Origin: Escherichia phage mEp460_ev081
Strand: one strand, 5' to 3'
Sequence record: LR597641
Length of the DNA stretch: 45,865 bases
Positions 22,164-45,824 of this stretch are shown here, piece after piece. Under the pieces are notes generated by a model. That model saw only the letters and a program-made list of their open reading frames with translations, ran no database searches and had not been told where the DNA came from. A program made the translations under genes and the position numbers. Within the stretch, counting starts at the first letter, position 1, and each line of letters begins with the position of its first letter.

Positions 22164-22738
22164 TGGCATTCAGAATGAGTGAACAACCACGGACCATAAA
22201 AATTTATAATCTGCTGGCCGGAACTAATGAATTTATTGGTGAAGGTGATGCATATATTCCGCCTCATACAGGTCTGCCAGCAAACAGTACCGATATTGCA
22301 CCGCCAGATATTCCGGCTGGCTTCGTGGCTGTTTTCAACAGTGATGAGTCATCGTGGCATCTCGTTGAAGATCATCGGGGTAAAACGGTTTATGACGTGG
22401 CTTCCGGCGACGCGTTATTTATTTCTGAACTCGGTCCGTTACCGGAAAATGTTACCTGGTTATCGCCGGAAGGGGAGTTTCAGAAGTGGAACGGCACAGC
22501 CTGGGTGAAGGATACGGAAGCAGAAAAACTGTTCCGGATCCGGGAGGCGGAAGAAACAAAAAACAACCTGATGCAGGTAGCCAGTGAGCATATTGCGCCG
22601 CTTCAGGATGCTGCAGATCTGGAAATTGCAACGGAGGAAGAAATCTCGTTGCTGGAAGCATGGAAAAAGTATCGGGTATTGCTGAACCGTGTTGATACGT
22701 CAACTGCACAGGATATTGAATGGCCAGCACTGCCGTAG
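22163..22738 (+). CDS. tfa: Tail fiber assembly protein Tfa
   Basis: 191 aa; start overlaps the stf stop; conserved Tfa-like C-terminus ([29 protein letters not shown]). Confidence 0.9.
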
Positions 22739-23976: not shown

Positions 23977-24808
23977 GAAGATATTCCTTAAAATATTATT
24001 GATTTTCATTGCGATATTGTATGTCTGATTCAGGATATGTTGACTTATACATCGGTTTTGTCTGGGTTATTGGATATGCCAATCCCTAATTTTATTAGGG
24101 CATGACTAAAAATGCTGAATATGATAAGGAGAGATGTGATTATCAGTATGCTGTTCATATAGCCTCGAATTAGTAATGTGTTATATATGATATAGTTGAC
24201 AATTTTTATCTTGGGTGTTCTTAAAGTTCGTAGATAAACATTGTCGTTTCAGGTATACAGGAATGCTAACAGGTGGCAGCAAAAATCAGGCGGTTTATGG
24301 CGCAAGCTGAAGCGGCAACTGTAAACTATCTTATGCAGAGACTCTACACGGATTGGGTTTAAAAGTATACATAGATAACAGTTTTTATCTGAAAAAGAAA
24401 AATATCAAGGTGATATAGCCTATATGCCTTTGATGCGGAGGAATGAATGTGATGGGAGTGATGTATCTGAATAGTTGAAAAACCGCAGACACGCCTTATG
24501 CAAGAACGTGCTGCGGTTGGCTGGTAAATTTTTCGATAGTGTGAGTATTGAATGATTTCCAGCCGTTCTTGATTTTACGCATAAATCCATGAAAAAACTA
24601 CTTATCTGTTGGGGAGTTTTTTTTGGGGCATATATGGGACAGAAATAGGCCCCAGATAGACACTGAGATCGAACTTAGGATGCTTTTTAAAAAATGCAAC
24701 TATCTGAAAAAACCTAGAAAACGCCAAGGAAACCACAGGATGGGAAAAAACACCTGTGAATTATGGATTTCAAGAGTCATACGTGTCAACTATTTGATAA
24801 ATATTAAA

Positions 24809-26089
24809 TTAATTTTTCATTGCTTCGTTATGGGGCATGGTTGGGGCAAACTCGCTTAACTGTGTATTTAACAAAGCTACCTGTGCATTATTGTTTTCAG
24901 ACATCCATTTTCCGTATACCTGAAATACCATTTGCGCATCTGCATGGCCCATCTGGTTTGCTATAAATGCCGGGTTAGCACCAGCTGTCAGCGACCAGCA
25001 GGCATAAGTATGTCTCGACTGATATGATTTTCGATGGCGGAGTCCGGCACGTTTTATCGCTGCGTCCCACATCTGCCTTATTGAGTCAACGGTAAAATGG
25101 TCACCATAATTTTTTACTCTCGCTGACACTTCAGGTTGAAAAACAAAGGTGCATTTATGTTTTTCTGTTCTGCCATACTCTCTGAGGTAAACATCAATGA
25201 TATGCTCTTTGCTCAGTCTCGTTAATGTCATCTGACTCCGGAGAGCGTCGATTGCTGGCTTAATAAGATGAATGACCCGATTGGTTCCCGCCTGTGTTTT
25301 TGGTACCGTGAAACGGTCTTTTGCTAAATTTCTCCTGATCATCATTGTTCCATTTTTCAGATCTATGTCCTCCCATCCAAGTGCACACAGCTCACCAGGG
25401 CGAACGCCAGTATAAACAGAAACACACCATAAATTTTTGGCTTGCTGATTTCTGCACGCATCGATAAGACGGATGAATTCCTCCCGCGAAAGAGGATCCG
25501 GAATGGTTCTTGATTCCTTTAATGGCGAGATCCCCTTAAACGGGTTATCTGCCAGGTAACCGTTATCAACACCAAACTGGAACACGGCGTTAAGATTTGT
25601 CATGTAATTATTTACAGTTACAGCCGATCTCCCTGGTTGTGTAACAATATAGTTACTTTTGGGGATCTGGTATCCAGTCAGTAGCTCTTTACGAACCTCC
25701 AGTAATTTTTCTTTATTAATCGATGAGGCAAGATTTTTTTCACCGATTATGCTCAGGATATTTTTGATGACGGCACGGTATGTGTTGAGTGATGTTTTTG
25801 CGACTTCAGTTTCTTTCAGTGCCAGAAATTTTTCAGCCAGTTCTTTTATGGTTAAATCTTGTCGGGCCTCACCAAATTTTTCCAGATTGCGTGAGGAGGG
25901 AAACTGTTTTGCATAGTCGAAAACACCAGTTTTTATTGCGTAACAAACAGAGGCGCGTAGCTCACCTGCAACGCGCCTGTTTTTTGCTGTGTCAGGAACC
26001 CCCAGGTTTTCCCTGACTCTTACGCCTTTATAAACAAACCAGATACGTAATTTCCCTCCATGGTTTTCCACGCCTGTCGGATATTTCAT
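24809..26089 (-). CDS. int: Tyrosine integrase
   Basis: C-terminal catalytic signature (RHTYACWSL...GH...VYGKW containing the R, HxxR and Y elements); adjacent excisionase; start set at MKYPTGVENHGGK (the ORF extends 5 codons further upstream). Confidence 0.9.
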   Translation of the reverse strand: MKYPTGVENHGGKLRIWFVYKGVRVRENLGVPDTAKNRRVAGELRASVCYAIKTGVFDYAKQFPSSRNLEKFGEARQDLTIKELAEKFLALKETEVAKTSLNTYRAVIKNILSIIGEKNLASSINKEKLLEVRKELLTGYQIPKSNYIVTQPGRSAVTVNNYMTNLNAVFQFGVDNGYLADNPFKGISPLKESRTIPDPLSREEFIRLIDACRNQQAKNLWCVSVYTGVRPGELCALGWEDIDLKNGTMMIRRNLAKDRFTVPKTQAGTNRVIHLIKPAIDALRSQMTLTRLSKEHIIDVYLREYGRTEKHKCTFVFQPEVSARVKNYGDHFTVDSIRQMWDAAIKRAGLRHRKSYQSRHTYACWSLTAGANPAFIANQMGHADAQMVFQVYGKWMSENNNAQVALLNTQLSEFAPTMPHNEAMKN

Positions 26090-26123
26090 TTCAACTTCTC
26101 TCATTAGTTAGTGTGGCTTTTAG

Positions 26124-26375
26124 TCAAGTAAGATGACGTCTTGGTCTTGCTGATGCCTGGCGCTCAATCCAGCGATCAATTTCTTCCAGGTTGTAAAAGC
26201 ATGGACTGTTATCCCATGGCATACCGTCATGAGCGACATGCTTATATTCCCTTCCTTCCATAAACGATTTTTCCCGGGCCTTTTTTAACGTACCTTTTTT
26301 TATTCCTTTCAGCGCAATTAACTGCTCTTCGGATACCCATTTGCCGGGAGAGACAATCATGATTACTTCGCTCAT
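26124..26375 (-). CDS. xis: Excisionase (putative)
   Basis: 83-aa basic ORF immediately upstream of and co-oriented with int. Confidence 0.6.
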   Translation of the reverse strand: MSEVIMIVSPGKWVSEEQLIALKGIKKGTLKKAREKSFMEGREYKHVAHDGMPWDNSPCFYNLEEIDRWIERQASARPRRHLT

Positions 26376-26447: not shown

Positions 26448-28919
26448 TTAAGAATCAGCCTGACTCGGGATCAGTTTTTGCCAGATAGCTGAAACGTATT
26501 TTGCCTGGTAACGGGCGTCATCAAGTGCATTATGGCGCTCACCTTCGAATGGAATAGCCGTTCTGGCATCGAAGTCTATGGCTTTCCCCAGCTCAACGAT
26601 TGTGCGTACATCGCGATCGTTGTAGTAACGCCACGGGCAGGGGATCCCCTGCCGTTCGTATGAACGGCGCAAAATCGTGTTGTCGAAGTTGGCTCCATTT
26701 CCCCAGACATGAACAAAAAATTCACCGGAGTTTTCGTCGATAAATTCCCGCAATTGTAACAGTGCATCATCTAACGGGATTTCATCGGTCATAATGGCAG
26801 ATTGCGCTTCGCGTGATTGTTTAAGCCACCATTTAATGGTGTCCCGATCAATGACTCCGCCAGCAGTTTCCAGATCGATAGTCTTACTAAATTCCGGTCC
26901 CATATCTCCGGTTTGCGGATCGAAAAATATTGCACCTATTGAGATAATCGGGGCATCGGGATTTTTTCCCATGGTTTCAAGGTCGATCATCAGATGAATC
27001 CCCGCTCTGCTGGTGGATGTGAGATTATGATGACCGTTCGCCTTAATTAAGGGATCTGACGCCTCGCCAGTTTCACTATCGCTGGCATGATGCTGATTGC
27101 TGCCAGTGTTCTCCTTGTGCTGATGCGCAGAGCCTTCCATTTCCTCCAGATCATTTTTCTGAACTTCAGGCTGATTCTCTCCATCGAATATTTCCTGGTA
27201 TGTTGCGTCACCCATCACCGCACCACAATCAGGGCAGTTGCCGCCACCGCTCTGACCGCAGGCGGTGCAGATCTTTTCCGGTTCCTGTTGCACTACTGGT
27301 TCAGGTTGTTTCGTTTCTGGCTCGTTTTGTTGCGTATTTGGGCTGTTTTGTTCCGCTTTCTGGTCGTTCTGTTCCGTTTCTTGCTGGTTCTGGTTCACAG
27401 AATCGCGGGTCTGGATCCCCTTAATCCATTTCGGATCATTCGGGTCGCTAATCCCTTCAACAAATTCACCACGTGATACTGCAAGCAGTTCATCGGCGTC
27501 AGGCTGGCTGATATTGGCTGCCTGCATAATTTTGTTTACTTCGTCAGCGGTAACTTTTACTGACCCTGGTTGTGCGGTCGTGTCAGATGCACCAGTATTT
27601 TGTTGTGAACCTGAGTATGTACCGTTTTTGCGGGCGAAATATTCTTCTTTCGTGATTTCAGTAGCCCCAGCAGACAGCGCCTTATCCAGACCAGAAAGTT
27701 TATTTGCGCGACCGTATTTTTCGCCATCCTTGTCGGTGAAGAGGAAGTAGAACGGCCCCTCACGTTCTACAGATGGTTCGACTTCCACTTTGCATTCGGT
27801 TTTTTCGTTGTCTGGAATTGCCGTTTCCACTGCATCAGTTTCTGGTACTGGCGACGAGAGAGTATCAGTTGCGCTCTGATTTGTTCCTTCATCTTCAAAC
27901 ACGCCCTTTGTAGTCAGGTATTCAGTAATGTATTTGTTCAGTGCCACAGGGTCTTTGTGAATGTCGATCGGACGTTCACGGACAAGGCCAAAAATAGTCT
28001 GGCGGTCGTAGCGAAGGGCATCAGGCTGTTTGCGCATTGATGCCGAGATACGCTTCCAGTCTTCGCGGTCGTTGTCGATAACTTCATTTTTTGCCCAGCG
28101 ATGGATGCTGCCGTCAATGTTTCCGGCATCCACATCACCAGGCCAGAGAGCGTAGGCCAGTTCGTCATCCAGTGTTTTCCATGTCTGCTTGTATTCGCGA
28201 TGAATGGCAGCAATGACCGGGTTGATTTTTCCTGTTGAATTTTCAGTGTGCTGTTGATTGGCTCTGGCGCGGGCGAGATCAACAACAGACGTGTATTTTC
28301 CGGCTTCCTTGCGTTCACCTTCGCGACGTTTTTTCCAGATGCGCATCTCTGCCTGAATTTCGGGCCATTTGGCACCAGGCTTACATTTATGCTTAACCCA
28401 CCCGATGGCATGCAGCTTAAGCTCCGGATACATAGCGTTAACTTCTGGCATTTTCATCAACGCTTCAACGATATGGCCGTCGAATGTTGCCATGTCTTCC
28501 TGCAACAATTCCTGTGCGCTAATCACCATATCAACAGTGATGTTTTCACATGTGTCGAACTTAACCATGACAGCGTTCTGTACTTCAGGGGCTAGGTTGT
28601 CAAAAGTGACGTTCATCGGATCGGATTCAGTCTCGACCGGGACAAAGGAAGCAGACGCCTCATCCCAGCGGTTTTCCTGCATATATTCAGCATCCCAGGA
28701 ATCGAGGGCAGGGCGGGGTATACCGGGTTTATCCTCGCAAACAAGAAATTTATAAGCGCAGTCCTGAGCAGCCGGATAATGTTCCAGGAATTGCCAGTGA
28801 AATTTTGCGCGGGCGCGACGTTCATCACCGGCTTCAATGGCAGTGGCTACAGCGACGGCACCTTCTTCCTTTATTGCCTGTTCGTCCGGAATGGCGGCGC
28901 AAATAAAGACTTTACTCAT
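26448..28919 (-). CDS. Large exonuclease-family protein with C-terminal DEDDh (DnaQ-like) 3'-5' exonuclease domain
   Basis: 823 aa; C-terminal IDLETMG...WGNGANFD...HNALDDARY matches the Exo I/II/III motifs of DnaQ-like exonucleases; central CTACG...CPDCG zinc-ribbon-like motif and a Q/N/E-rich low-complexity linker. Confidence 0.75.
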   Translation of the reverse strand: MSKVFICAAIPDEQAIKEEGAVAVATAIEAGDERRARAKFHWQFLEHYPAAQDCAYKFLVCEDKPGIPRPALDSWDAEYMQENRWDEASASFVPVETESDPMNVTFDNLAPEVQNAVMVKFDTCENITVDMVISAQELLQEDMATFDGHIVEALMKMPEVNAMYPELKLHAIGWVKHKCKPGAKWPEIQAEMRIWKKRREGERKEAGKYTSVVDLARARANQQHTENSTGKINPVIAAIHREYKQTWKTLDDELAYALWPGDVDAGNIDGSIHRWAKNEVIDNDREDWKRISASMRKQPDALRYDRQTIFGLVRERPIDIHKDPVALNKYITEYLTTKGVFEDEGTNQSATDTLSSPVPETDAVETAIPDNEKTECKVEVEPSVEREGPFYFLFTDKDGEKYGRANKLSGLDKALSAGATEITKEEYFARKNGTYSGSQQNTGASDTTAQPGSVKVTADEVNKIMQAANISQPDADELLAVSRGEFVEGISDPNDPKWIKGIQTRDSVNQNQQETEQNDQKAEQNSPNTQQNEPETKQPEPVVQQEPEKICTACGQSGGGNCPDCGAVMGDATYQEIFDGENQPEVQKNDLEEMEGSAHQHKENTGSNQHHASDSETGEASDPLIKANGHHNLTSTSRAGIHLMIDLETMGKNPDAPIISIGAIFFDPQTGDMGPEFSKTIDLETAGGVIDRDTIKWWLKQSREAQSAIMTDEIPLDDALLQLREFIDENSGEFFVHVWGNGANFDNTILRRSYERQGIPCPWRYYNDRDVRTIVELGKAIDFDARTAIPFEGERHNALDDARYQAKYVSAIWQKLIPSQADS

Positions 28920-29011: not shown

Positions 29012-29203
29012 TTAAAGACCTGCCGGGATTTCGTTATTATCCTGGTGAATAACTTTATCGACCGGGTAACAGTTACCGGGAATTTTCTGTTCGGTTGCTG
29101 CAGTCACACACTCCTGCATTGTCCTGTGAACACTGACTGCAATATCAACTGGCTCTCCGGAAACAAGAAAAACTGTCAGAACAAGTGCAAATGCTGTATT
29201 CAT
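29012..29203 (-). CDS. ydfD: YdfD-like small membrane protein
   Basis: 63 aa from MNTAFALVLTVFLVSGEPVD..., matching E. coli Qin YdfD as recalled; start overlaps the dicB stop. Confidence 0.7.
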   Translation of the reverse strand: MNTAFALVLTVFLVSGEPVDIAVSVHRTMQECVTAATEQKIPGNCYPVDKVIHQDNNEIPAGL

Positions 29204-29388
29204 TGCCAGCATCCTTTTTGTATCGGACGTAAACGGGCCAACATTGAAAGAATGCATATTTTATTTAATAGCTTCCGTTCGTGTTTTCTCTTGTTAATGG
29301 CATCTTCAGTAAATACAGGGTTACTGATAGTGACACCAATTTCAAAACAACCTTCAGACGTATTAACGTTTGGTAATAACGTTTCCAT
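29200..29388 (-). CDS. dicB: Cell division inhibitor DicB
   Basis: 62 aa from METLLPNVNTSEGCFEIGVTISNPVFTEDAINKRK..., matching Qin DicB as recalled; immediately downstream of DicF. Confidence 0.8.
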   Translation of the reverse strand: METLLPNVNTSEGCFEIGVTISNPVFTEDAINKRKHERKLLNKICILSMLARLRPIQKGCWQ

Positions 29389-29557
29389 TATCGCGTCCTC
29401 AACAATGAATTTTGTGATGCGGTGCCTGGTGCCTCCAGGTGACGTTAACCAGTTAACAATTAACGCCGGATACAGAGAATCCACCCATAACACTGTTTTT
29501 GGTTTTAACTGTTCCGCGTGCGCTCAGCCGCATTCACCGCATCACAAAATTCACTTT

Positions 29558-29615
29558 AAAAAGGGCGGCAGAGCAGTCACGGAGTAAAACTGATACCGCC
29601 AAACGTCACCAGAAA
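29558..29615 (-). ncRNA. dicF: DicF small regulatory RNA
   Basis: Reverse complement reads TTTCTGGTGACGTTTGGCGGTATCAGTTTTACTCCGTGACTGCTCTGCCGCCCTTTTT, matching E. coli DicF (ftsZ-targeting sRNA) with its intrinsic terminator; located between the ydfBC-like gene and dicB as in Qin. Confidence 0.8.
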
Positions 29616-29890
29616 ATTGATAACAGAGGGCGTTGCAGCGGGGTTGTCACTTAAGCGTATGGTCAACCTGACAACTCGGTGTCCTCAACGGGGAAGGAAT
29701 AACCCCGCCATACTTACCGCCGCGCCATTTCGCGGGTTGCCACAACCGGAAGCGCACGGTCGAATTAAATTTAACGACACCGTACAGTGAGACGAACTTC
29801 GCCGTGCGCTTTCGTGTTGTATGCCTGCTTTTAACCACGTCAGGCGAGGTGGTATCCTTCTTATCCCGAATAACCAAGAAGGAAATCTAT

Positions 29891-30091
29891 ATGACTAAAG
29901 AAGAATTTGTCTCTTATATTTTTGATAAAACGGTTGAAATGTATGCCGCTACTTACGGGTCCTGTAATCCTCTGAATAAACCAGAGGGGAAAGATGATTT
30001 CGACAAAATTTACCGCTTCTTGGAGGACCGCTATATCAAAAGGTTAGAGGACGCAGGGATCAAATCCCCAGTGAAGTCACCATTGTCCTGA
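29891..30091 (+). CDS. Hypothetical small protein, antisense to the dicB-operon transcript
   Basis: 66-aa ORF (MTKEEFVSYIFDKTVEMYAATYG...) with a good RBS (aaggaaat, about 7 nt upstream) and protein-like composition; convergent with the minus-strand operon. Confidence 0.35.
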   Translation: MTKEEFVSYIFDKTVEMYAATYGSCNPLNKPEGKDDFDKIYRFLEDRYIKRLEDAGIKSPVKSPLS

Positions 30092-30425
30092 GAACTTGCA
30101 GGACGTCATGATCGTAACTTCCATCCAAACCGCGACGGCAAATTGCTTCTCGTATTACCGGAAGCAGTTCGCTGGAAATCTCGGTGCATATTTCACCTGA
30201 TAATACGCCTGGCTCAAGTGAGAATATTGGTGAACTTACGGTCTTGGTCTCGACAGTTTCAGAGTCAGTGCCAACATTATAAAGCTCAACGAAAGCGGTC
30301 TTGATTTTCCGGGCCAGATCTTTTGCTGGCTCGCTTGCAATATCTTTCCCGATTTCTCGCAGCACAGAATGCAATGTATGAGCTGCTGTTTTCTGTACAT
30401 CAGACGGTAAATCTTTAAATTCCAT
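30060..30425 (-). CDS. Hypothetical protein in YdfB/YdfC position of the dicB operon
   Basis: 121-aa ORF from MEFKDLPSDVQKTAAH... between the ydfA-like gene and DicF; homology to YdfB/YdfC is inferred from position and memory only. Confidence 0.45.
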   Translation of the reverse strand: MEFKDLPSDVQKTAAHTLHSVLREIGKDIASEPAKDLARKIKTAFVELYNVGTDSETVETKTVSSPIFSLEPGVLSGEICTEISSELLPVIREAICRRGLDGSYDHDVLQVLRTMVTSLGI

Positions 30426-30436
30426 CGTCAGCCTCA

Positions 30437-30589
30437 TCAGTCAGTGTTTCTGGCTAACCAGCAACGCGCGCCAGATTCGGTTTTAAACGTTTTGCTTTTG
30501 GTATATGTCATCGCGGTGAACGTACCGTCCTGGTTGGGGAACACGCCACATACCAGAGATTCGCTGTTGCCAAGATCGATAGTATCCAT
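30437..30589 (-). CDS. YdfA-like small protein
   Basis: 50-aa ORF from MDTIDLGNSESLVCGVFPNQDGTF...; first gene downstream of the repressor gene, preceded by an operator-like palindrome. Confidence 0.45.
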   Translation of the reverse strand: MDTIDLGNSESLVCGVFPNQDGTFTAMTYTKSKTFKTESGARCWLARNTD

Positions 30590-30702
30590 GCTGACCTCAT
30601 TTCCCCTTAACGCCGGGGTAGCGGAACTGTTTGCTGAGAACACCGTGCGGTGTCTTGATGGAAGTAATTTAGTTTTCTCATTATTTTTCGTCAAGGTTTT
30701 TT

Positions 30703-30718
30703 GATGAGAAAACTCAAG
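30703..30718. promoter_or_regulatory. Operator-like palindrome (TGAGAAAACTCAA) upstream of the dicB-type operon
   Basis: Second copy of the motif found in the repressor/cro intergenic region; an inverted partner (agttttctca) lies about 25 bp upstream. Confidence 0.45.
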
Positions 30719-30781
30719 TATTGGCGCAAGATAAAGCCAATACATTGAAATGTAAGGCTTTAAAATTTTGTGAAGGGATGA

Positions 30782-31189
30782 TTATTGATGCTTGTTGCGT
30801 TTGCGAGCCTCTAATAGCTCGGTGAACAGGCGATTAAAATTCTCAACGCGGGCGCGGAGTTCGCTGAGTTGTGCTTGTTGCTCTGATTTAGGAAGTGCGC
30901 GATACAAACGCAGCATCTCTAACTCATCTTCCGATAAGTCTAAGGCACTATCGAGTGAAACAGGGGGAGCTGGTGTTTTGTCCTCGTCGCCAAACAGTAT
31001 CCAGGTTGGTGAACATTGCAATACCTCGGCGAGGCGATGCAAATTTTGCCCGCGCGGGGCTGTATGGTCACTTTCCCATAATGAAATTGATGAGCCAGAT
31101 ACGCCAGCAGCTTTGCTTAAACCGTTTTGACTTAAGCCTACCTGCTTACGTCTTTCTCTAATGCGTTGACCTAAAGTTTTCTCGTTCAT
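30782..31189 (-). CDS. Immunity repressor, DicA-like (XRE-family HTH)
   Basis: 136 aa; HTH segment (LGQRIRERRKQVGLSQNGLSKAAGVSGSSISLWE) and C-terminal similarity to E. coli DicA (VLQCSPTWILFGDEDK...NFN.LF.ELL.ARKR); divergent from a Cro/DicC-like gene; no S24 peptidase domain. Confidence 0.85.
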   Translation of the reverse strand: MNEKTLGQRIRERRKQVGLSQNGLSKAAGVSGSSISLWESDHTAPRGQNLHRLAEVLQCSPTWILFGDEDKTPAPPVSLDSALDLSEDELEMLRLYRALPKSEQQAQLSELRARVENFNRLFTELLEARKRNKHQ

Positions 31190-31236
31190 ATTTAGATATC
31201 TTAATAACCCTTGACTTGAGATTCCTTGAGTGATTA

Positions 31237-31255
31237 GCATTGAGAAAACTCAATA
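31237..31255. promoter_or_regulatory. Operator-like palindrome in the repressor/cro divergent promoter region
   Basis: TTGAGAAAACTCAA perfect palindrome between the divergent DicA-like and DicC-like genes. Confidence 0.5.
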
Positions 31256-31266
31256 TTGGAGGTGCG

Positions 31267-31494
31267 ATGTTTAAATCAGACGTAATTAATTTTTACGGTA
31301 CGAAAGCCAAAGTAGCGAAAGCTGCTGGCGTTGACCCATCTGCTGTTTCTCAATGGCAAGAGCTGGTTCCTGAAGGTCGCGCGATGCGTCTACAGGAGGC
31401 ATCTGGCGGCGAGCTTCTGTATGATCCCAAGGTTTATGACGAATATCGTAAGACGAAGCGGGCGGGGCGGTTGAACAATGAAAATCACTCCTGA
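31267..31494 (+). CDS. Cro/DicC-like regulator
   Basis: 75-aa ORF divergent from the repressor; my alignment to DicC/YdaS-family proteins is from memory and unverified. Confidence 0.65.
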   Translation: MFKSDVINFYGTKAKVAKAAGVDPSAVSQWQELVPEGRAMRLQEASGGELLYDPKVYDEYRKTKRAGRLNNENHS

Positions 31495-33387: not shown

Positions 33388-33821
33388 TGTTAGGTATTTT
33401 AGACGTTACTAGATTAAAAAGCATTAGTTCAGGAGTGAATTGACATTCTCATTTTTCATGGCACAGGGTAGATCTGGCGTGGTTGTCCGCTTTGTGCCAA
33501 GAGCGGACGTTGGTATGCAAGAGCCCTCCAAAAGTTGATGGTTGGTTTGCAGGGGGGCTTAAAGAAACTGCACTTATCAAGTTGAAGTTCTGTATTCAGC
33601 GAAATCGTAGCACTCTGACGATAAGTAACTCCGGTACTCCGCTCTTCGATGAAGAACCAGAGTAATCCCCCCGAAAAACCAGCGCATCAAAATTGGATCT
33701 TCAGCGGTAGCTTATCGGCTATCGGAAGTACAGGTGTGGATTCGTGGTGAATTGCTTTGATAATAAACGATTAATACGGAAAAACGCATTAATCATTTAT
33801 TAGCTTTTAGTAAACCACAAT

Positions 33822-35171
33822 TTATTCCGTTTTACATATCATAGTAGTCGATTGGAGAATATAGTTTCTGGGAATGTACTCTTCAAAGTGTTCGTCCTTT
33901 TTAAATACATGAACTACATTTGGGAATAATTGATAGTCAACAGGGTGTATAGCGTTTGGATTATGGTACATGTACATGGCTGTACACCATGGTTCTTGAT
34001 AGTTAGGGTCACTTACATCGGCTGAAAATGGATGTGGGGCTGCATCCTGATCAGTTTTAACACCACTGACGTACACTTTGAATCCACTCGCCTCTACACC
34101 TGCAAGAATTCCCATCCGGTTAAACTTAGGTATGGTTGCTTGAGTAGTGAGTAAAACGGCAGAAACATAATTATTTTGTTCTGAGCCAAAAAAGTTCGAC
34201 TTGATACTTCTATTTTCATCTGTATGTCTTTCAATAGAAATGCCTGACTCAATATCAATCCCGTACAAATAGCTATGCAAGGCTTCGCTTGAGAAGGCCA
34301 TGGACATTCTTTTTGAATAATCCTGCATTGCTATGACAAATGGTTTGTTCTTTGTATGGTTGAGTTCCCAGTAATGAACTTTCTCTGGCTCAGGGCAATG
34401 CCGGACTTTTTTTAATAAACTTCTTGCAAACTTAAAAGGCATGACATTTAGAACATGTTTTCTTAATTCATCCATCTGTTCATCGTTAATGACTTTTCTT
34501 TCAAGAGGGGCTTCTGCTTCAGCAATGCTTACAGCCTCTACAGCAATTTCCACTCCAAATTTAGATAGCAGAAAATCTGGTTGATTGTATTCTCTATTCA
34601 TTTCAAAGTCGAGTTCATAAAATACAGCGTTCAAATATAATTCAAATAACCTTGAATTAAATGCATCACTTTGAAAATCCCTTATAAATATTCCATCAGG
34701 ATCTTTGAACCAGTATGCAAGTTCCTCAAGAACAATATATGCAGGGAAATGAAGAGGGTCTTCGAGGAGCATTTTTATATAAACATTCCTTTTTTTCTCT
34801 GGGACTTTACTCAAGAATAATGAAAAAGGTTTGGATGATTCATCGCCTTGCATGAATGTACCATTTTGGTGCTGCGCCAGCATCTTTGGTATGTCATCGT
34901 TCAAATTATTAAGCAAGACATCCATTGAATCAAATGAAGCCAAGACGTTTATTGCTCTGAATTTTTTATCTAAATCCCGACCTAAGACTATTGCGTTAAA
35001 ATCTTTATCAATATTGCATATGATTATTGTGGATAACAATGTTATCCCATTCCCCTCATATTTAAACCAGCGTATCTCCTCAGAAAATGTCTTAAGGTAA
35101 GGTGAGCGACCGTAAAAATAAATATCAAATTGTTCTTTGCTGATCTCACTGAAGTGTAATCCTGCGTTCAT
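33822..35171 (-). CDS. Hypothetical protein, AT-rich orphan gene (candidate accessory/defence cargo)
   Basis: 449-aa uninterrupted ORF on the strand opposite its neighbours, in a markedly AT-rich segment; no P-loop, HEXXH, RT or other motif I can recognise. Confidence 0.7.
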   Translation of the reverse strand: MNAGLHFSEISKEQFDIYFYGRSPYLKTFSEEIRWFKYEGNGITLLSTIIICNIDKDFNAIVLGRDLDKKFRAINVLASFDSMDVLLNNLNDDIPKMLAQHQNGTFMQGDESSKPFSLFLSKVPEKKRNVYIKMLLEDPLHFPAYIVLEELAYWFKDPDGIFIRDFQSDAFNSRLFELYLNAVFYELDFEMNREYNQPDFLLSKFGVEIAVEAVSIAEAEAPLERKVINDEQMDELRKHVLNVMPFKFARSLLKKVRHCPEPEKVHYWELNHTKNKPFVIAMQDYSKRMSMAFSSEALHSYLYGIDIESGISIERHTDENRSIKSNFFGSEQNNYVSAVLLTTQATIPKFNRMGILAGVEASGFKVYVSGVKTDQDAAPHPFSADVSDPNYQEPWCTAMYMYHNPNAIHPVDYQLFPNVVHVFKKDEHFEEYIPRNYILQSTTMICKTE

Positions 35172-35293
35172 ACCAATTCCTTTTCAATGAATAATTGGCC
35201 TTTAGGAGTGATTCCCTTTGTCTTTAATTCAGTTCTAACTAGTTCTTTAATCCAATAGCCTAAGCTCATCATGCAGTTGGATCATAAGACAAC

Positions 35294-35322
35294 GCCCTAT
35301 AGTGCTCGTGATACTATAGGGC
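35294..35322. promoter_or_regulatory. Perfect 10-bp inverted repeat (GCCCTATAGT-9 bp-ACTATAGGGC), operator candidate
   Basis: Seen directly in the intergenic region upstream of the 449-aa gene's start codon. Confidence 0.4.
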
Positions 35323-35613
35323 ATCTGACCACACTGTTAACTGGAGTAACGACTATGGCAGGAATACAGCATAACCAAACTCACCCCAAACTTACATAGC
35401 GCTTTCTGGCCGTGAGCATAACAAGGTCCACTCCTCGCTCAAAGCGGACTAGAAGGTTAGCTTGTGTCGGACTTTGCGTATTAAATGACTAGTGGTTGAG
35501 CCCCATTTCCACAGAAAAAATCAGAGAAACTATACCCAATAGTTGTATTGAATCACTGACGAGACAGCCTCATATTCATCAGGACTGGTGTACGTCCAAT
35601 ACAGGAGGTTGTG

Positions 35614-35703: not shown

Positions 35704-35914
35704 TTTCACATTGGCGAGGTAACGGTAGTTAAGTAGAATGGCTGCGGGTGCTTGAGGCTATCTGCCTCGGGCATGAACACCAACGGCAGATAGAGAAAAG
35801 CCCCAGTTAACATTACGCGTCCTGCAAGACGCTTAACATTAATCTGAGGCCAATTTCATGCTAGACACATGTAGGTTAGCCTCTTACGTGCCGAAAGGCA
35901 AGGAGAAGCAGGCT

Positions 35915-36070
35915 ATGAAGCAGCAAAAGGCGATGTTAATCGCCCTGATCGTCATCTGTTTAACCGTCATAGTGACGGCACTGGTAACGAGGAAAGACCT
36001 CTGCGAGGTACGAATCCGAACCGGGCAGACGGAGGTCGCTGTCTTCACAGCTTACGAACCTGAGGAGTAA
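35915..36070 (+). CDS. hok: Hok/Gef-family type I toxin (HokD/RelF-like)
   Basis: 51 aa MKQQKAMLIALIVICLTVIVTALVTRKDLCEVRIRTGQTEVAVFTAYEPEE; the in-frame upstream extension from 35858 sits in the mok position; 3' fold-back region and terminator follow. Confidence 0.9.
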   Translation: MKQQKAMLIALIVICLTVIVTALVTRKDLCEVRIRTGQTEVAVFTAYEPEE

Positions 36071-36286: not shown

Positions 36287-36538
36287 ATGATGAACATCGA
36301 AGAACTGCGTAAAATTTTTTGTGAAGATGGCCTCTATGCGGTGTGCGTTGAAAATGGAAATCTTGTTAGTCATTACCGCATTATGTGTTTGCGAAAGAAT
36401 GGGGCTGCGTTAATTAATTTTGTGGATGGTCGAGTGACAGACGGATTTATCTTGCGCGAAGGTGAGTTTGTCACTTCATTACAGGCACTGAAAGAGATCG
36501 GAATAAAAGCAGGCTTTTCAGCTTTTGCAGAAGAATAA
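36287..36538 (+). CDS. Hypothetical protein
   Basis: 83-aa ORF (MMNIEELRKIFCEDG...) with RBS; nin-region position. Confidence 0.5.
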   Translation: MMNIEELRKIFCEDGLYAVCVENGNLVSHYRIMCLRKNGAALINFVDGRVTDGFILREGEFVTSLQALKEIGIKAGFSAFAEE

Positions 36539-39282: not shown

Positions 39283-39358
39283 GGCCCTTTAGCTCAGTGG
39301 TGAGAGCGAGCGACTCATAATCGCCAGGTCGCTGGTTCAAATCCAGCAAGGGCCACCA
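39283..39358 (+). tRNA. tRNA with CAU anticodon (Met, or Ile2 if lysidine-modified; ileZ-like)
   Basis: 76-nt cloverleaf: acceptor GGCCCTT/AAGGGCC, D-arm AGCTCAGTGG, anticodon loop CTCATAA, T-arm GGTTCAAATCC, 3' CCA. Confidence 0.85.
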
Positions 39359-39458: not shown

Positions 39459-39535
39459 GCGTTGTTAGCTCAGCCGGACAGAGCAATTGCCTTCTAAGCA
39501 ATCGGTCACTGGTTCGAATCCAGTACAGCGCGCCA
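39459..39535 (+). tRNA. tRNA-Arg (UCU anticodon; argN/argO-like)
   Basis: 77-nt cloverleaf: acceptor GCGTTGT/ACAGCGC, anticodon loop CTTCTAA, T-arm GGTTCGAATCC, 3' CCA. Confidence 0.85.
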
Positions 39536-39999: not shown

Positions 40000-40473
40000 A
40001 TACATATCTGGATTATCACCTGTTACGGTAAAAAGTGATTGCTTACTGTTTTTGTGAATGGCATTGCAGCAGCCGGATAATGTCAGTGCTGGCTGACGGT
40101 GTGCTGGTGGCGGGTGTGGTGGTTGTTGCTTTCCCGTTGCTGAAAAAGAAAACGCCAGACTGTTAGCCGGGTATCAGTTAGCGGGAGAAATTTTTAAATA
40201 CTTCACAATTCAGGCGGTTGACTGTTCTCTGGTTTGCGGGGAGTTTGTTAAAAGAAACTGGCATGGTGAATCCCCCTGTGCGGAGGGGCAATCAGCGAGT
40301 AGGTATATGGGATAATCGCGGATTCAGGTGCTGGTACTGAATTCACCGGGAGGCACCCGGCACCATGCACTTCAATAGATTCTCTCCACATTATGGATAT
40401 TCTTTCAGAATATCCCACGCAGACTTTGTGTAAATGTTAACAAATGTGCGTTTTATTTGATCTGATTCGCTGT

Positions 40474-43314: not shown

Positions 43315-43677
43315 ATTAATATTAAATCGGATTATTTTTAGCGCTGAATGTGAAATTTAAATAAAAAGGACTCTTCCATGAGTCAAAATCCTTGAAATCT
43401 TAAGGGTAAGATAAAAGGTCATTAGACAGAATGACACGTTTTATTAATAAATAAAGCTATTGTTTCATTCGTGTGTTTTTCTTTACAAAAGTAATCCTTG
43501 CTATGGTTGGTTAATCATGCGTTAATGGTGTTCTGGTTTGTTACAAAATTATCTGAAGCAGTCATTGTTATAATTTTATTATTTGTACCTCTTGAGATTT
43601 CCTTGTTGGTTTTTCTCTCTGATATTTTTTTTCGGACCATTCTGCCCAAGGGCTAACTTCTTCAAAAGGTAATAATG

Positions 43678-43890
43678 ATGTCTAACAAAATGACTGGTTT
43701 AGTGAAATGGTTTAACCCTGAAAAAGGTTTTGGTTTCATCACGCCGAAAGATGGTAGCAAAGATGTGTTTGTGCATTTCTCAGCTATTCAGAGCAACGAT
43801 TTCAAAACGTTAACTGAGAATCAGGAAGTCGAATTTGGTATTGAGAACGGACCTAAAGGCCCTGCAGCTGTTCATGTAGTGGCACTTTGA
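43678..43890 (+). CDS. Cold-shock protein (CspA family; CspI/CspB-like)
   Basis: 70 aa with RNP motifs (KGFGFI, VFVHF); long AT-rich 5' UTR typical of csp genes. Confidence 0.9.
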
Positions 43891-44093
43891 GGTAGAAAAT
43901 ATTACAAACCATATTCACTTTAGATGCCCGTGTTGCCATGGTTCTCAGTATAGAACATCATCTTTTGATGTTTCTGACAGAAATCCTTTCGGGGCAAAAT
44001 GTATCTTTTGTAAATCAATGATGATTACATTTGATAATATTTCACAATACTTAAATGTTAGCCATCTGTCGTTAGATTTAAGAAAGTGAAAAT

Positions 44094-44392: not shown

Positions 44393-44564
44393 TTTGATTC
44401 TAATGCATTGATAATAAATGATAATCATCTTTATCTGTTTGTGTGAAATTTAGACCGTCGTATGTTGATTATTGCGATGTTTCATCTTATCTTTTATACG
44501 TTTGCTCCATATAATTGACACTACTGTGTACCAGGACAGTCATAACAGACTAAAAGAGGAAATG

Positions 44565-45628: not shown

Positions 45629-45824
45629 GGCTAGTTTTTGAAATTTCATCCGTCATCACCACTACTGTAATAGATTGATATTACAGTATTTTTATTTTTG
45701 TGGTGTCGATTTTGATTGTTTTTTGTGGCTAGTTTTTGAAATTTCATCCGTCATCACCACTACTGTAATAGATTGATATTACAGTATTTTTATTTTTGTG
45801 GTGTCGATTTTGATTGTTTTTTGT
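45629..45824. repeat. Perfect tandem direct repeat (2 x 98 bp) in the cosB position, each unit containing a 10-bp-arm palindrome
   Basis: Unit ggctagtttttgaaatttcatccgtcatcaccactactgtaatagattgatattacagtatttttatttttgtggtgtcgattttgattgttttttgt occurs twice in tandem; each contains TACTGTAATA-gattga-TATTACAGTA. Confidence 0.85.

Follow-up and report, generated by a model that had tools for sequence, protein, structure and literature searches.

Does the leftward operon at positions 29012-30745 of the DNA analysed here (the window, 45,865 nt from Escherichia phage mEp460_ev081, LR597641) belong to a working phage, or is it a leftover of a decayed prophage, or even a product of faulty assembly? On the strength of sequence comparison, and with a probability that we put at about 0.88, we surmise that this stretch is the promoter-proximal part of a pL-type early-left operon, and that the phage to which it belongs is a complete, temperate lambdoid of the Qin family. 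The Qin-type operon in this complete E. coli phage is real, yet it is ordinary and previously described: dicBF in a functional phage is already known, being in print for mEp460_ev081, together with dicAC and rem (Ragunathan et al. 2023, PMC10448788), and annotated in the record of phage Tritos. With the dicBF operon so well studied, the finding has low weight as a discovery; the exact DicF sequence itself is present on at least 120 IMG/VR contigs.

The operon genes that have counterparts in K-12 are the following:

29012-29203, minus strand: ydfD, 63 aa; Pfam PF07358 (DUF1482), 88 bits; 94% identical to K-12.
29200-29388, minus strand: dicB, 62 aa, MinC-dependent division inhibitor; Pfam PF05358, 126 bits; NCBIfam NF049927, 132 bits.
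29563-29615, minus strand: DicF sRNA, 53 nt; Rfam RF00039, 76.7 bits; 53/53 identical to K-12; 3' terminator-like hairpin and U-run.
29563-29752, minus strand: DicF precursor, 190 nt, which holds the mature sRNA; 189/190 identical to K-12.
30437-30592, minus strand: ydfA, 51 aa, with which the leftward operon begins; Pfam PF07151 (DUF1391), 93.9 bits; 88% identical to K-12 YdfA.

The preliminary description had recognized DicF, dicB and ydfD from the letters alone, and all three identifications are borne out. The DicF match (E=2.6e-15) lies above the Rfam gathering score of 48, and the RNA has a predicted fold of -22 kcal/mol (z = -3.3). In K-12, the 190-nt precursor is the product of RNase III cleavage (processing scheme from PMC10448788), and sequence comparison indicates that this processing substrate is conserved in the window. 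Directly downstream of dicF lies dicB, after a 174-nt spacer of which 172 positions are identical to K-12. The dicB match clears the NCBIfam cutoff of 100, with 87% amino acid identity to K-12 (175/189 nt); the 8 of 62 residues that differ from the K-12 protein are mostly at the C-terminus. The 4-nt overlap between ydfD and dicB is the same in K-12, where ydfD is annotated as a lysis protein. A generic terminator scan within the operon found none but the 3' hairpin of DicF, the latter seen by folding. For ydfA, the proposed identity stood and the proposed end at 30745 did not, as that coordinate is merely an upstream in-frame ATG of a 102-codon ORF in the ydfA frame.

Between ydfA and the DicF precursor, homology to K-12 ends at window position 30446 and restarts at 29818. 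Neither ydfB nor ydfC is present in this interval; in their place is an unrelated cassette of two genes:

30060-30425, minus strand: 121-aa protein, phrog_33007; not YdfB/YdfC; its N-terminal 50 aa form a 'MEFKDLP' helical hairpin common to other slot proteins.
29891-30091, plus strand: 66-aa gene, phrog_34441, convergent with the operon; RefSeq-annotated and missed by the preliminary description.

The 121-codon ORF had been taken for YdfB/YdfC in a single frame; the ORF exists as described and the identity does not hold. Fused ydfB and ydfC, or their ancestral form prior to interruption, would account for its place between ydfA and the DicF precursor and for its size, which is close to that of ydfB and ydfC together (42 + 72 aa). 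However, neither blastn nor blastp found any similarity of the ORF to ydfB or ydfC, and the PHROG families differ (phrog_33007 vs. phrog_2061 for YdfB and phrog_1744 for YdfC); in addition, the ORF and its convergent 66-aa partner are found in prophages without dicBF genes, and a true ydfB fusion, the 205-aa protein of phage HannyBb (phrog_35040), looks different. Ruled out by blastn, blastp and PHROG, the fusion retains practically no probability. From these comparisons, the 121-aa ORF makes up, together with the convergent 66-aa gene, an unrelated, evidently mobile cassette, and the slot that it fills ahead of the DicF precursor is polymorphic. Since slot contents also vary among other carriers of the exact DicF sequence, ydfB and ydfC would not be essential to the operon.

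The 66-aa gene and the 121-codon ORF overlap by 32 nt, at the 3' end of the latter; the 66-aa gene has its own Shine-Dalgarno as well as a conserved promoter-like element, GGTGGTATCCTT, upstream, which makes it a probable autonomous moron. Three prophage cassettes that were compared (from Enterobacter, Salmonella and one unidentified host) carry this gene intact, at 87-94% amino acid identity, and synonymous changes in it are at least about as common as non-synonymous ones. A Cedecea copy (73% identical) stands alone. The whole cassette also resides in Enterobacter and Salmonella prophages that lack dicB. Neither protein had a match in Pfam, NCBIfam or PADLOC, and the best E-values against PDB sequences were 0.055 and 0.73; homologues were confined to Enterobacteriaceae, every one annotated as hypothetical. 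An AlphaFold model of the 121-aa protein, built from 13 sequences, was poor (pLDDT 55, pTM 0.40). We speculate, and rate it as unlikely, that the pair is no passive filler but an autonomous cassette whose 66-aa gene is expressed in the lysogen from a conserved promoter of its own, antisense to the repressed operon, either for a new function of benefit to the lysogen or for damping, through convergent transcription, leaky read-through into the toxic genes dicF and dicB. A lysogen-benefit function may take the form of exclusion or of a toxin-antidote pair. If this speculation were true, antisense morons would have a dedicated hot spot in the slot that precedes the DicF precursor. With its convergent 66-aa gene, the polymorphic stretch from ydfA to the DicF precursor is the sole uncharted piece of this locus.

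Downstream of ydfD, as far as the attachment site, the window has the following:

24757-24774, no strand assigned: attP core GAAATCCATAA, the same as that of Qin attL and attR.
24809-26104, minus strand: tyrosine integrase, intact form of the K-12 pseudogene intQ; phrog_1, 262 bits.
26124-26375, minus strand: excisionase (xis), 83 aa; annotated so in identical prophages, Tritos and HannyBb.
26448-28919, minus strand: exonuclease, 823 aa, intact form of the K-12 pseudogene ydfE; Pfam PF16473, 225 bits; phrog_2082.

Over residues 1-256, the exonuclease shares 96% identity with the K-12 ydfE remnant, and its C-terminus carries a DnaQ/Rv2179c-like 3'-5' exonuclease domain; likewise, window positions 24757-25968 are 98.8% identical to the K-12 intQ remnant. 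Alignment to K-12 Qin, which had been set beforehand as the check on the proposed kinship, gave the DicF and dicB matches described above as well as colinearity over 12,190 of 20,469 bp of Qin (60%), at 92-99% identity. Recombination at the attP core gives exactly the attL and attR arms of K-12 Qin. A near-identical genome, with 99.96-99.98% identity, is found as an uninterrupted prophage at the Qin site (ydfJ|rspB) of E. coli 20Ec-P-124; the window is a circular permutation of that prophage, i.e. an excised form with contiguous attP and without bacterial flanks, and its two halves meet at 24757-24774, the 18 bp by which they overlap in the prophage forms. Colinearity, the identical att core and a prophage at the Qin locus thus uphold the proposal that this phage is an intact counterpart or relative of Qin.

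These data also bear on the possibility that the window is a decayed, non-viable Qin-like remnant, in which dicBF would be no working phage operon but a module domesticated by the host. Such decay is common among E. coli copies, most of which are partial: part of the 2.6-kb region occurs in 4767 of 5426 genomes and at least 80% of it is covered in only 176, and the prophage of strain IMT16316, despite 99.9% identity, has a truncated terminase and has lost structural genes. The window differs in several respects: 1) it is in the excised, circularly permuted form; 2) each of the 19 structural proteins of the isolated phage mEp460 has a full-length counterpart, uninterrupted by stop codons; 3) int, xis, an O-like protein gene, Q, holin, endolysin, Rz and rem are intact, with PHROG matches for the O-like protein, Q, holin, endolysin, Rz and int; 4) PGAP pseudogene flags in an identical prophage fall on moron fragments only; and 5) relatives sharing these modules form plaques. 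We therefore consider a decayed remnant distinctly improbable, and the earlier assertion of full replication, morphogenesis and lysis modules is well founded.

A chimeric or mis-assembled sequence, in which the juxtaposition of dicBF and complete phage modules would be an artefact, is still harder to credit. Close to the presumed cos region, positions 45629-45824 consist of two perfect tandem copies of a 98-bp sequence; this duplication, missing from identical prophages, resembles the untrimmed overlap of a circularised contig and could itself be an assembly artefact. Aside from this duplication, however, the whole 45.8 kb is colinear with a prophage of an independently finished genome at 99.96-99.98% identity, and the left 24.7 kb recurs at 99.9-100% identity in two more finished genomes. 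We thus retain the reading of a Qin-type dicB/DicF operon in an apparently complete Qin-related phage, as first proposed, which colinearity, the att match and intact modules all favor.

The control region of the operon is the part that departs from K-12:

30666-30720, minus strand: putative sigma-70-like pL/dicBp-equivalent promoter, TTGACG-17-TAAATT; consensus match, with an inverted pair of the candidate operator on both sides.
30782-31189, minus strand: DicA-like repressor, 135 aa; Pfam HTH_3, 56.8 bits; 57% identical to DicA over 127 aa.
31190-31266, no strand assigned: control region between repressor and cro, with a single candidate operator at 31241-31253 and a PR-like promoter match at 31211-31240.
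31267-31494, plus strand: Cro/DicC-like regulator, 75 aa, divergent from the repressor; Pfam P22_Cro, 59 bits; 70% identical to K-12 DicC.
36287-36538, plus strand: rem, antirepressor of DicA-type repressors; 96% identical to K-12 Rem.

As had been suggested, a DicA-like repressor lies upstream of the leftward operon; its start codon was taken from the RefSeq annotation of identical prophages. Pfam matched the HTH alone, with no Peptidase_S24 domain. By homology, all three components of a short DicA-type repressor, divergent DicC/Cro and Rem system are present; the function of Rem in K-12 has been described (PMC10448788). A YdaT-like protein is also encoded, 98% identical to YdfX. The candidate operator motif, TGAGAAAACT[AC]AA, occurs in 3 copies in the window vs. 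0.17 expected; promoter and operator assignments are consensus matches, from which we infer their function. Ahead of the leader, the DNA shows no alignment to the K-12 dicBp promoter/operator sequence; homology resumes in the leader. Given promoter/operator DNA unlike K-12 dicBp, regulation by the repressor and Rem is extrapolated across 57% identity. With repressor and operators both differing from K-12, the term Qin-type applies only to the transcribed part of the operon, and the phage is probably heteroimmune, its repressor being just 57% identical and its promoter/operator DNA unrelated. SOS control of rem was considered and rejected, as no CTGT-N8-ACAG site (LexA box) lies upstream of or anywhere near rem; the one match in the whole window, at 44524, is at chance level.

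Onto the gene identities, synteny, intactness, att site and conserved processing substrate found here, we project regulation and activities from work on DicF and DicB in K-12 (PMC10448788, PMC6832061). In the lysogen, the DicA-type repressor (135 aa, no RecA-cleavable domain) would bind operators at the leftward and the divergent cro/dicC promoters, keeping the operon off. Derepression would most likely proceed via the phage's own Rem antirepressor or via a DicA/DicC bistable switch. A single leftward transcript would then comprise ydfA, the 121-aa ORF, the DicF precursor, dicB, ydfD, the exonuclease gene, xis and int, with RNase III and RNase E cutting the precursor to yield 190-nt and 53-nt DicF. 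Against this, the convergent gene that lies within the operon might reduce the transcription that reaches dicF and dicB. The sRNA is predicted to base-pair with ftsZ and manX mRNAs, while DicB, together with MinC, would block FtsZ-ring function and would also block ManYZ activity; YdfD is presumably a small lysis-type protein. In an induced or infected cell, division would accordingly stop, and superinfecting phages that depend on ManYZ would be shut out during phage replication. The genome may serve as a reference for Qin before its decay, with full-length YdfE exonuclease, intact xis and int, the same att site and an mEp460-type virion module. As an undecayed Qin, it therefore offers a natural system for asking what DicF and DicB contribute to a phage, not to a host.

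Among known systems, the dicBF operon of K-12 Qin (dicC, dicA ydfA ydfB ydfC dicF dicB ydfD ydfE) is like that of the window in gene order and orientation, and the two elements share the att site, rem, hokD/sok, ydfU, the lysis cassette, cspI, gnsB, pinQ and tfaQ. In contrast to K-12 Qin, the window has the unrelated 121-aa/reverse 66-aa cassette instead of ydfB and ydfC, and it is devoid of relBE, flxA and ydfV. The defects of Qin, namely IS2 in ydfE, a truncated int, no xis and the loss of head and tail genes, are missing from the window, which has full head, tail and terminase genes along with intact exonuclease, xis and int.

Other close parallels are infectious phages. Both mEp460_ev081 (LR597641.1) and Tritos are functional infectious lambdoid siphoviruses for which dicB, dicF, dicA/C and rem have been reported, and the mEp460 record has the same start point as the window. 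Tritos (OV696610, prophage 3 of E. coli LF82) is plaque-forming, and its record annotates DicF, dicB and ydfD, followed downstream by the 823-aa exonuclease, xis and int that the window also has; 59-80% of the window length is shared, at 93-96% identity. Tritos differs in having a K-12-type ydfB/ydfC slot and another immunity region (CI/Cro/Rha). HannyBb is a further infectious relative with the same operon.

Two other known systems resemble parts of this arrangement. Like DicA and Rem, GfoR and GfoA of the Gifsy prophages pair a short, non-cleavable, HTH-only repressor with a small antirepressor encoded elsewhere on the phage; Gifsy antirepressors are LexA-controlled, whereas rem in the window has no LexA box upstream. 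Kil of lambda and KilR of Rac are, like DicB, small division inhibitors of the early-left operon that are expressed on derepression, and KilR takes the place of dicF and dicB in the Salmonella prophage with this 121/66-aa cassette. These proteins are unrelated to DicB and have no sRNA partner; moreover, Kil works on FtsZ via ZipA, whereas DicB works via MinC.

The whole window was scanned with Rfam, and the ORFs of the operon (minus strand, 29012-31240) were read from the ORF list; with a short gene on the opposite strand, the features are as follows:

30782-31240, minus: repressor ORF from the ORF list, likely start at 31189 (135 aa)
30437-30592, minus: ydfA, DUF1391 (Pfam/NCBIfam)
30060-30425, minus: 121-codon ORF from the ORF list
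29891-30091, plus: 66-codon gene, phrog_34441, annotated by RefSeq in identical prophages
29563-29614, minus: match to DicF, RF00039, 76.7 bits vs. a gathering score of 48, E=2.6e-15
29200-29388, minus: dicB, DicB family at 126 bits and 132 bits (Pfam and NCBIfam)
29012-29203, minus: ydfD, DUF1482 (Pfam/NCBIfam)

The preliminary description had identified DicF and dicB, had placed ydfA-like and ydfD genes in the same leftward operon, and had proposed a pairwise alignment to the Qin prophage carried by E. coli K-12. This alignment bore out all four assignments, with identity to K-12 in 53/53 nt of mature DicF, 189/190 nt of the 190-nt RNase III precursor, 172/174 nt of the dicF-dicB spacer, 175/189 nt of dicB (87% aa) and 187/192 nt of ydfD (94% aa), and 88% aa identity for YdfA. 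The next rightward gene is 98% identical in aa to YdfX, the Cro-like protein 70% to DicC and the repressor 57% to DicA; the repressor carries HTH_3 alone, with no S24 peptidase domain in Pfam or NCBIfam. As judged by these alignments, chance is ruled out as the source of DicF, dicB and the other K-12 matches.

In K-12, a single polycistronic transcript is driven by dicBp, and RNase III (190 nt) and RNase E (53 nt) liberate DicF from it; ftsZ and manX are the targets that DicF represses, DicB, together with MinC, stops division and also phage entry that depends on ManYZ, and DicA, a repressor that cannot be cleaved, is countered by Rem and set against DicC in a bistable switch (PMC10448788; PMC6832061). 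Given that the window conserves the transcribed sequences, as well as Rem (96% identical to the K-12 protein), the best-supported explanation is that this regulatory and processing scheme would apply to the window's operon, acting in this phage as a pL-operon programme. The control DNA differs from that of K-12. The motif TGAGAAAACT[AC]AA occurs in 3 copies in the window vs. 0.17 expected, two of them as an inverted pair around a predicted promoter (TTGACG-17-TAAATT) upstream of ydfA and the third in the repressor/cro intergenic region. Since both control DNA and motif are unlike K-12, they suggest that the window's phage has an immunity specificity other than K-12's. No LexA box was found upstream of rem; a hok/sok type I toxin-antitoxin locus lies just upstream of this gene (35746-36070; sok RNA RF01794, 115 bits; HokD 100% identical to K-12 HokD).

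That the operon sits in a full phage related to Qin, complete with replication, morphogenesis and lysis modules, as had been claimed, was upheld as follows: 1) by BLAST, 12,190 of the 20,469 bp of Qin are colinear with the window at 92-99% identity; 2) the left end of Qin aligns up to window position 24774 and its right end down to 24757, and the window at 24757-24774 reads as a perfect attL/attR hybrid of the K-12 sites, with GAAATCCATAA as its core; 3) each of the 19 structural proteins of phage mEp460, an isolate, has a full-length counterpart in the window (93.6-100% identity, no stop codons); 4) PHROG profiles matched an integrase, an O-like initiator, a Ren-like protein, a DUF968/HNH protein, RusA, Q, holin, endolysin and Rz, and Xis is intact. 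As the ends of Qin meet at the attL/attR hybrid, the window corresponds to an excised, circularly permuted Qin-site prophage. It is 99.96-99.98% identical over its whole length to an uninterrupted prophage of E. coli 20Ec-P-124, which is flanked by a truncated ydfJ and by rspB and in which the PGAP pseudogenes are moron fragments only; the left 24.7 kb recurs at 99.9-100% identity in two further finished genomes. IS2 interrupts ydfE of K-12 Qin after residue 256, whereas the window has a whole exonuclease (823 aa) and also a whole int, the K-12 lesions being absent. The exonuclease (26448-28919, minus) comprises an N-terminal region without assigned function and a C-terminal DnaQ/Rv2179c-like 3'-5' exonuclease domain. 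We infer that this exact genome is viable.

One element of the preliminary description, a single YdfB/C ORF of 121 codons, did not hold. Nucleotide homology to K-12 ends at 30446 and restarts at 29818, blastp relates the 121-aa product to neither YdfB nor YdfC, and this product belongs to phrog_33007 rather than phrog_2061 (YdfB) or phrog_1744 (YdfC); on these grounds a fused YdfB/C is ruled out and the ORF is read as a replacement. Its 3' end overlaps the convergent 66-codon gene by 32 nt, and the two form a cassette at 29830-30440 (compared loci: L010 4001-4535, L011 4001-4583, L012 4001-4535, L015 3501-4032, L016 3501-3701). The convergent pair, its geometry unchanged, lies directly after the repressor in three further prophages (Enterobacter, Salmonella and one read-archive assembly) from which dicB and DicF are absent, their place being taken by KilR, YdaE, Gam and RecT, or other genes. 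In all of these copies the 66-aa ORF is unchanged in length and 87-94% identical in aa, and synonymous codon changes occur at least about as often as non-synonymous changes, a pattern which argues for a real gene. In a Cedecea prophage it is solitary and antisense between cro and cII-like genes, and in another contig its convergent partner is non-homologous; every copy is preceded by a conserved GGTGGTATCCTT element and by a good Shine-Dalgarno sequence. The 66-aa gene can stand alone, antisense within early operons, always behind the GGTGGTATCCTT element. Phages PPompW and Evi encode, in the same slot, 135-aa proteins that share the N-terminal 50 residues (MEFKDLP...) of the 121-aa protein; here too, an unrelated reverse-strand ORF comes next. 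Judging from these arrangements, the cassette moves separately from dicBF among lambdoid prophages of various Enterobacteriaceae. It occurs at >=99% identity in 406 of the 408 matching complete E. coli genomes (of 5426), BL21(DE3) included. As to function, Pfam, NCBIfam, PADLOC and a PDB sequence search gave no match, and the AlphaFold model of the 121-aa protein was poor (pLDDT 55).

We surveyed at least 120 IMG/VR viral contigs with the exact 53-nt DicF, 104 of them with enough upstream DNA. Among the matches listed, the slot that separates ydfA from the DicF precursor held K-12-type ydfB-ydfC in about 62-65 contigs, a ydfB fusion of 205 aa in 6-8, P118 plus ydfC without ydfA in about 7 and other cassettes (slot length 696-989 nt) in about 25, while the window's own cassette was in none; at least five or six architectures were seen, several with reverse-strand ORFs. 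DicB and YdfD followed DicF in 104 of the 109 listed contigs whose downstream DNA was long enough. The slot upstream of the DicF precursor is a cassette-exchange hot spot. By contrast, the dicF-dicB spacer and about 200 nt upstream of DicF hardly vary and exceed even the dicB coding sequence in conservation.

Other features were noted in the window. A 449-aa ORF (33822-35171, minus), inside an insert at about 33512-35425, gives a full-length match to the PADLOC defence protein PD-T7-1 (E=4e-157, 521 bits), with no Pfam or NCBIfam match; given this match, its location with the replication genes on one side and hok/sok on the other, and its absence from the near-identical IMT16316 prophage, we assign it as an anti-phage defence moron. 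A 98-bp sequence is perfectly duplicated in tandem at 45629-45824 (two copies, 100% identical), just upstream of the gene for the small terminase and close to the presumed cos region. It may be a real duplication, but the prophages of IMT16316, 20Ec-P-124 and KE48, otherwise 99.9-100% identical, have one copy only, which suggests an untrimmed overlap of a circularised assembly. Downstream of Q are two tRNA genes, at 39283-39358 and 39459-39535: one has anticodon CAT and is called Met by ARAGORN, but RefSeq has the identical gene as tRNA-Ile; the other is tRNA-Arg(TCT). Rfam also placed sRNA STnc100 at 40232-40422 (114 bits) in the Q-to-lysis moron region, a cspA thermoregulator at 43520-43936 (110 bits) upstream of cspI, whose product is 100% identical to K-12 CspI, and family IS009 (22506-22704) within tfa.

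The dicBF operon in a complete Qin-type phage is correctly described and already known, leaving the polymorphic cassette slot as the sole unexplored element of the finding. According to Ragunathan et al. 2023, the functional temperate phage mEp460_ev081 carries dicB, dicF, dicAC and rem; the mEp460 record and the window have an identical starting point. Segment 21967-24774 (pinQ, tfaQ, stfQ 3' end, ydfK, ynfT) is 99.1% identical to the K-12 Qin left end; PinQ inversion was recently reported to block phage T2 adsorption, and mEp460_ev081 and Tritos are among the PinQ carriers (PMC12529663). The dicBF region is common to HannyBb and several other isolated phages, and 4767 of the 5426 complete E. 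coli genomes have a partial copy of it. Phage Tritos, which is prophage 3 of strain LF82, is plaque-forming and a siphovirus by imaging, its recombination module type is classed as 'nuclease only, no annealase, no anti-RecBCD' in a 2025 survey, and its database record annotates DicF, dicB and ydfD beside the same exonuclease, xis and int as in the window.
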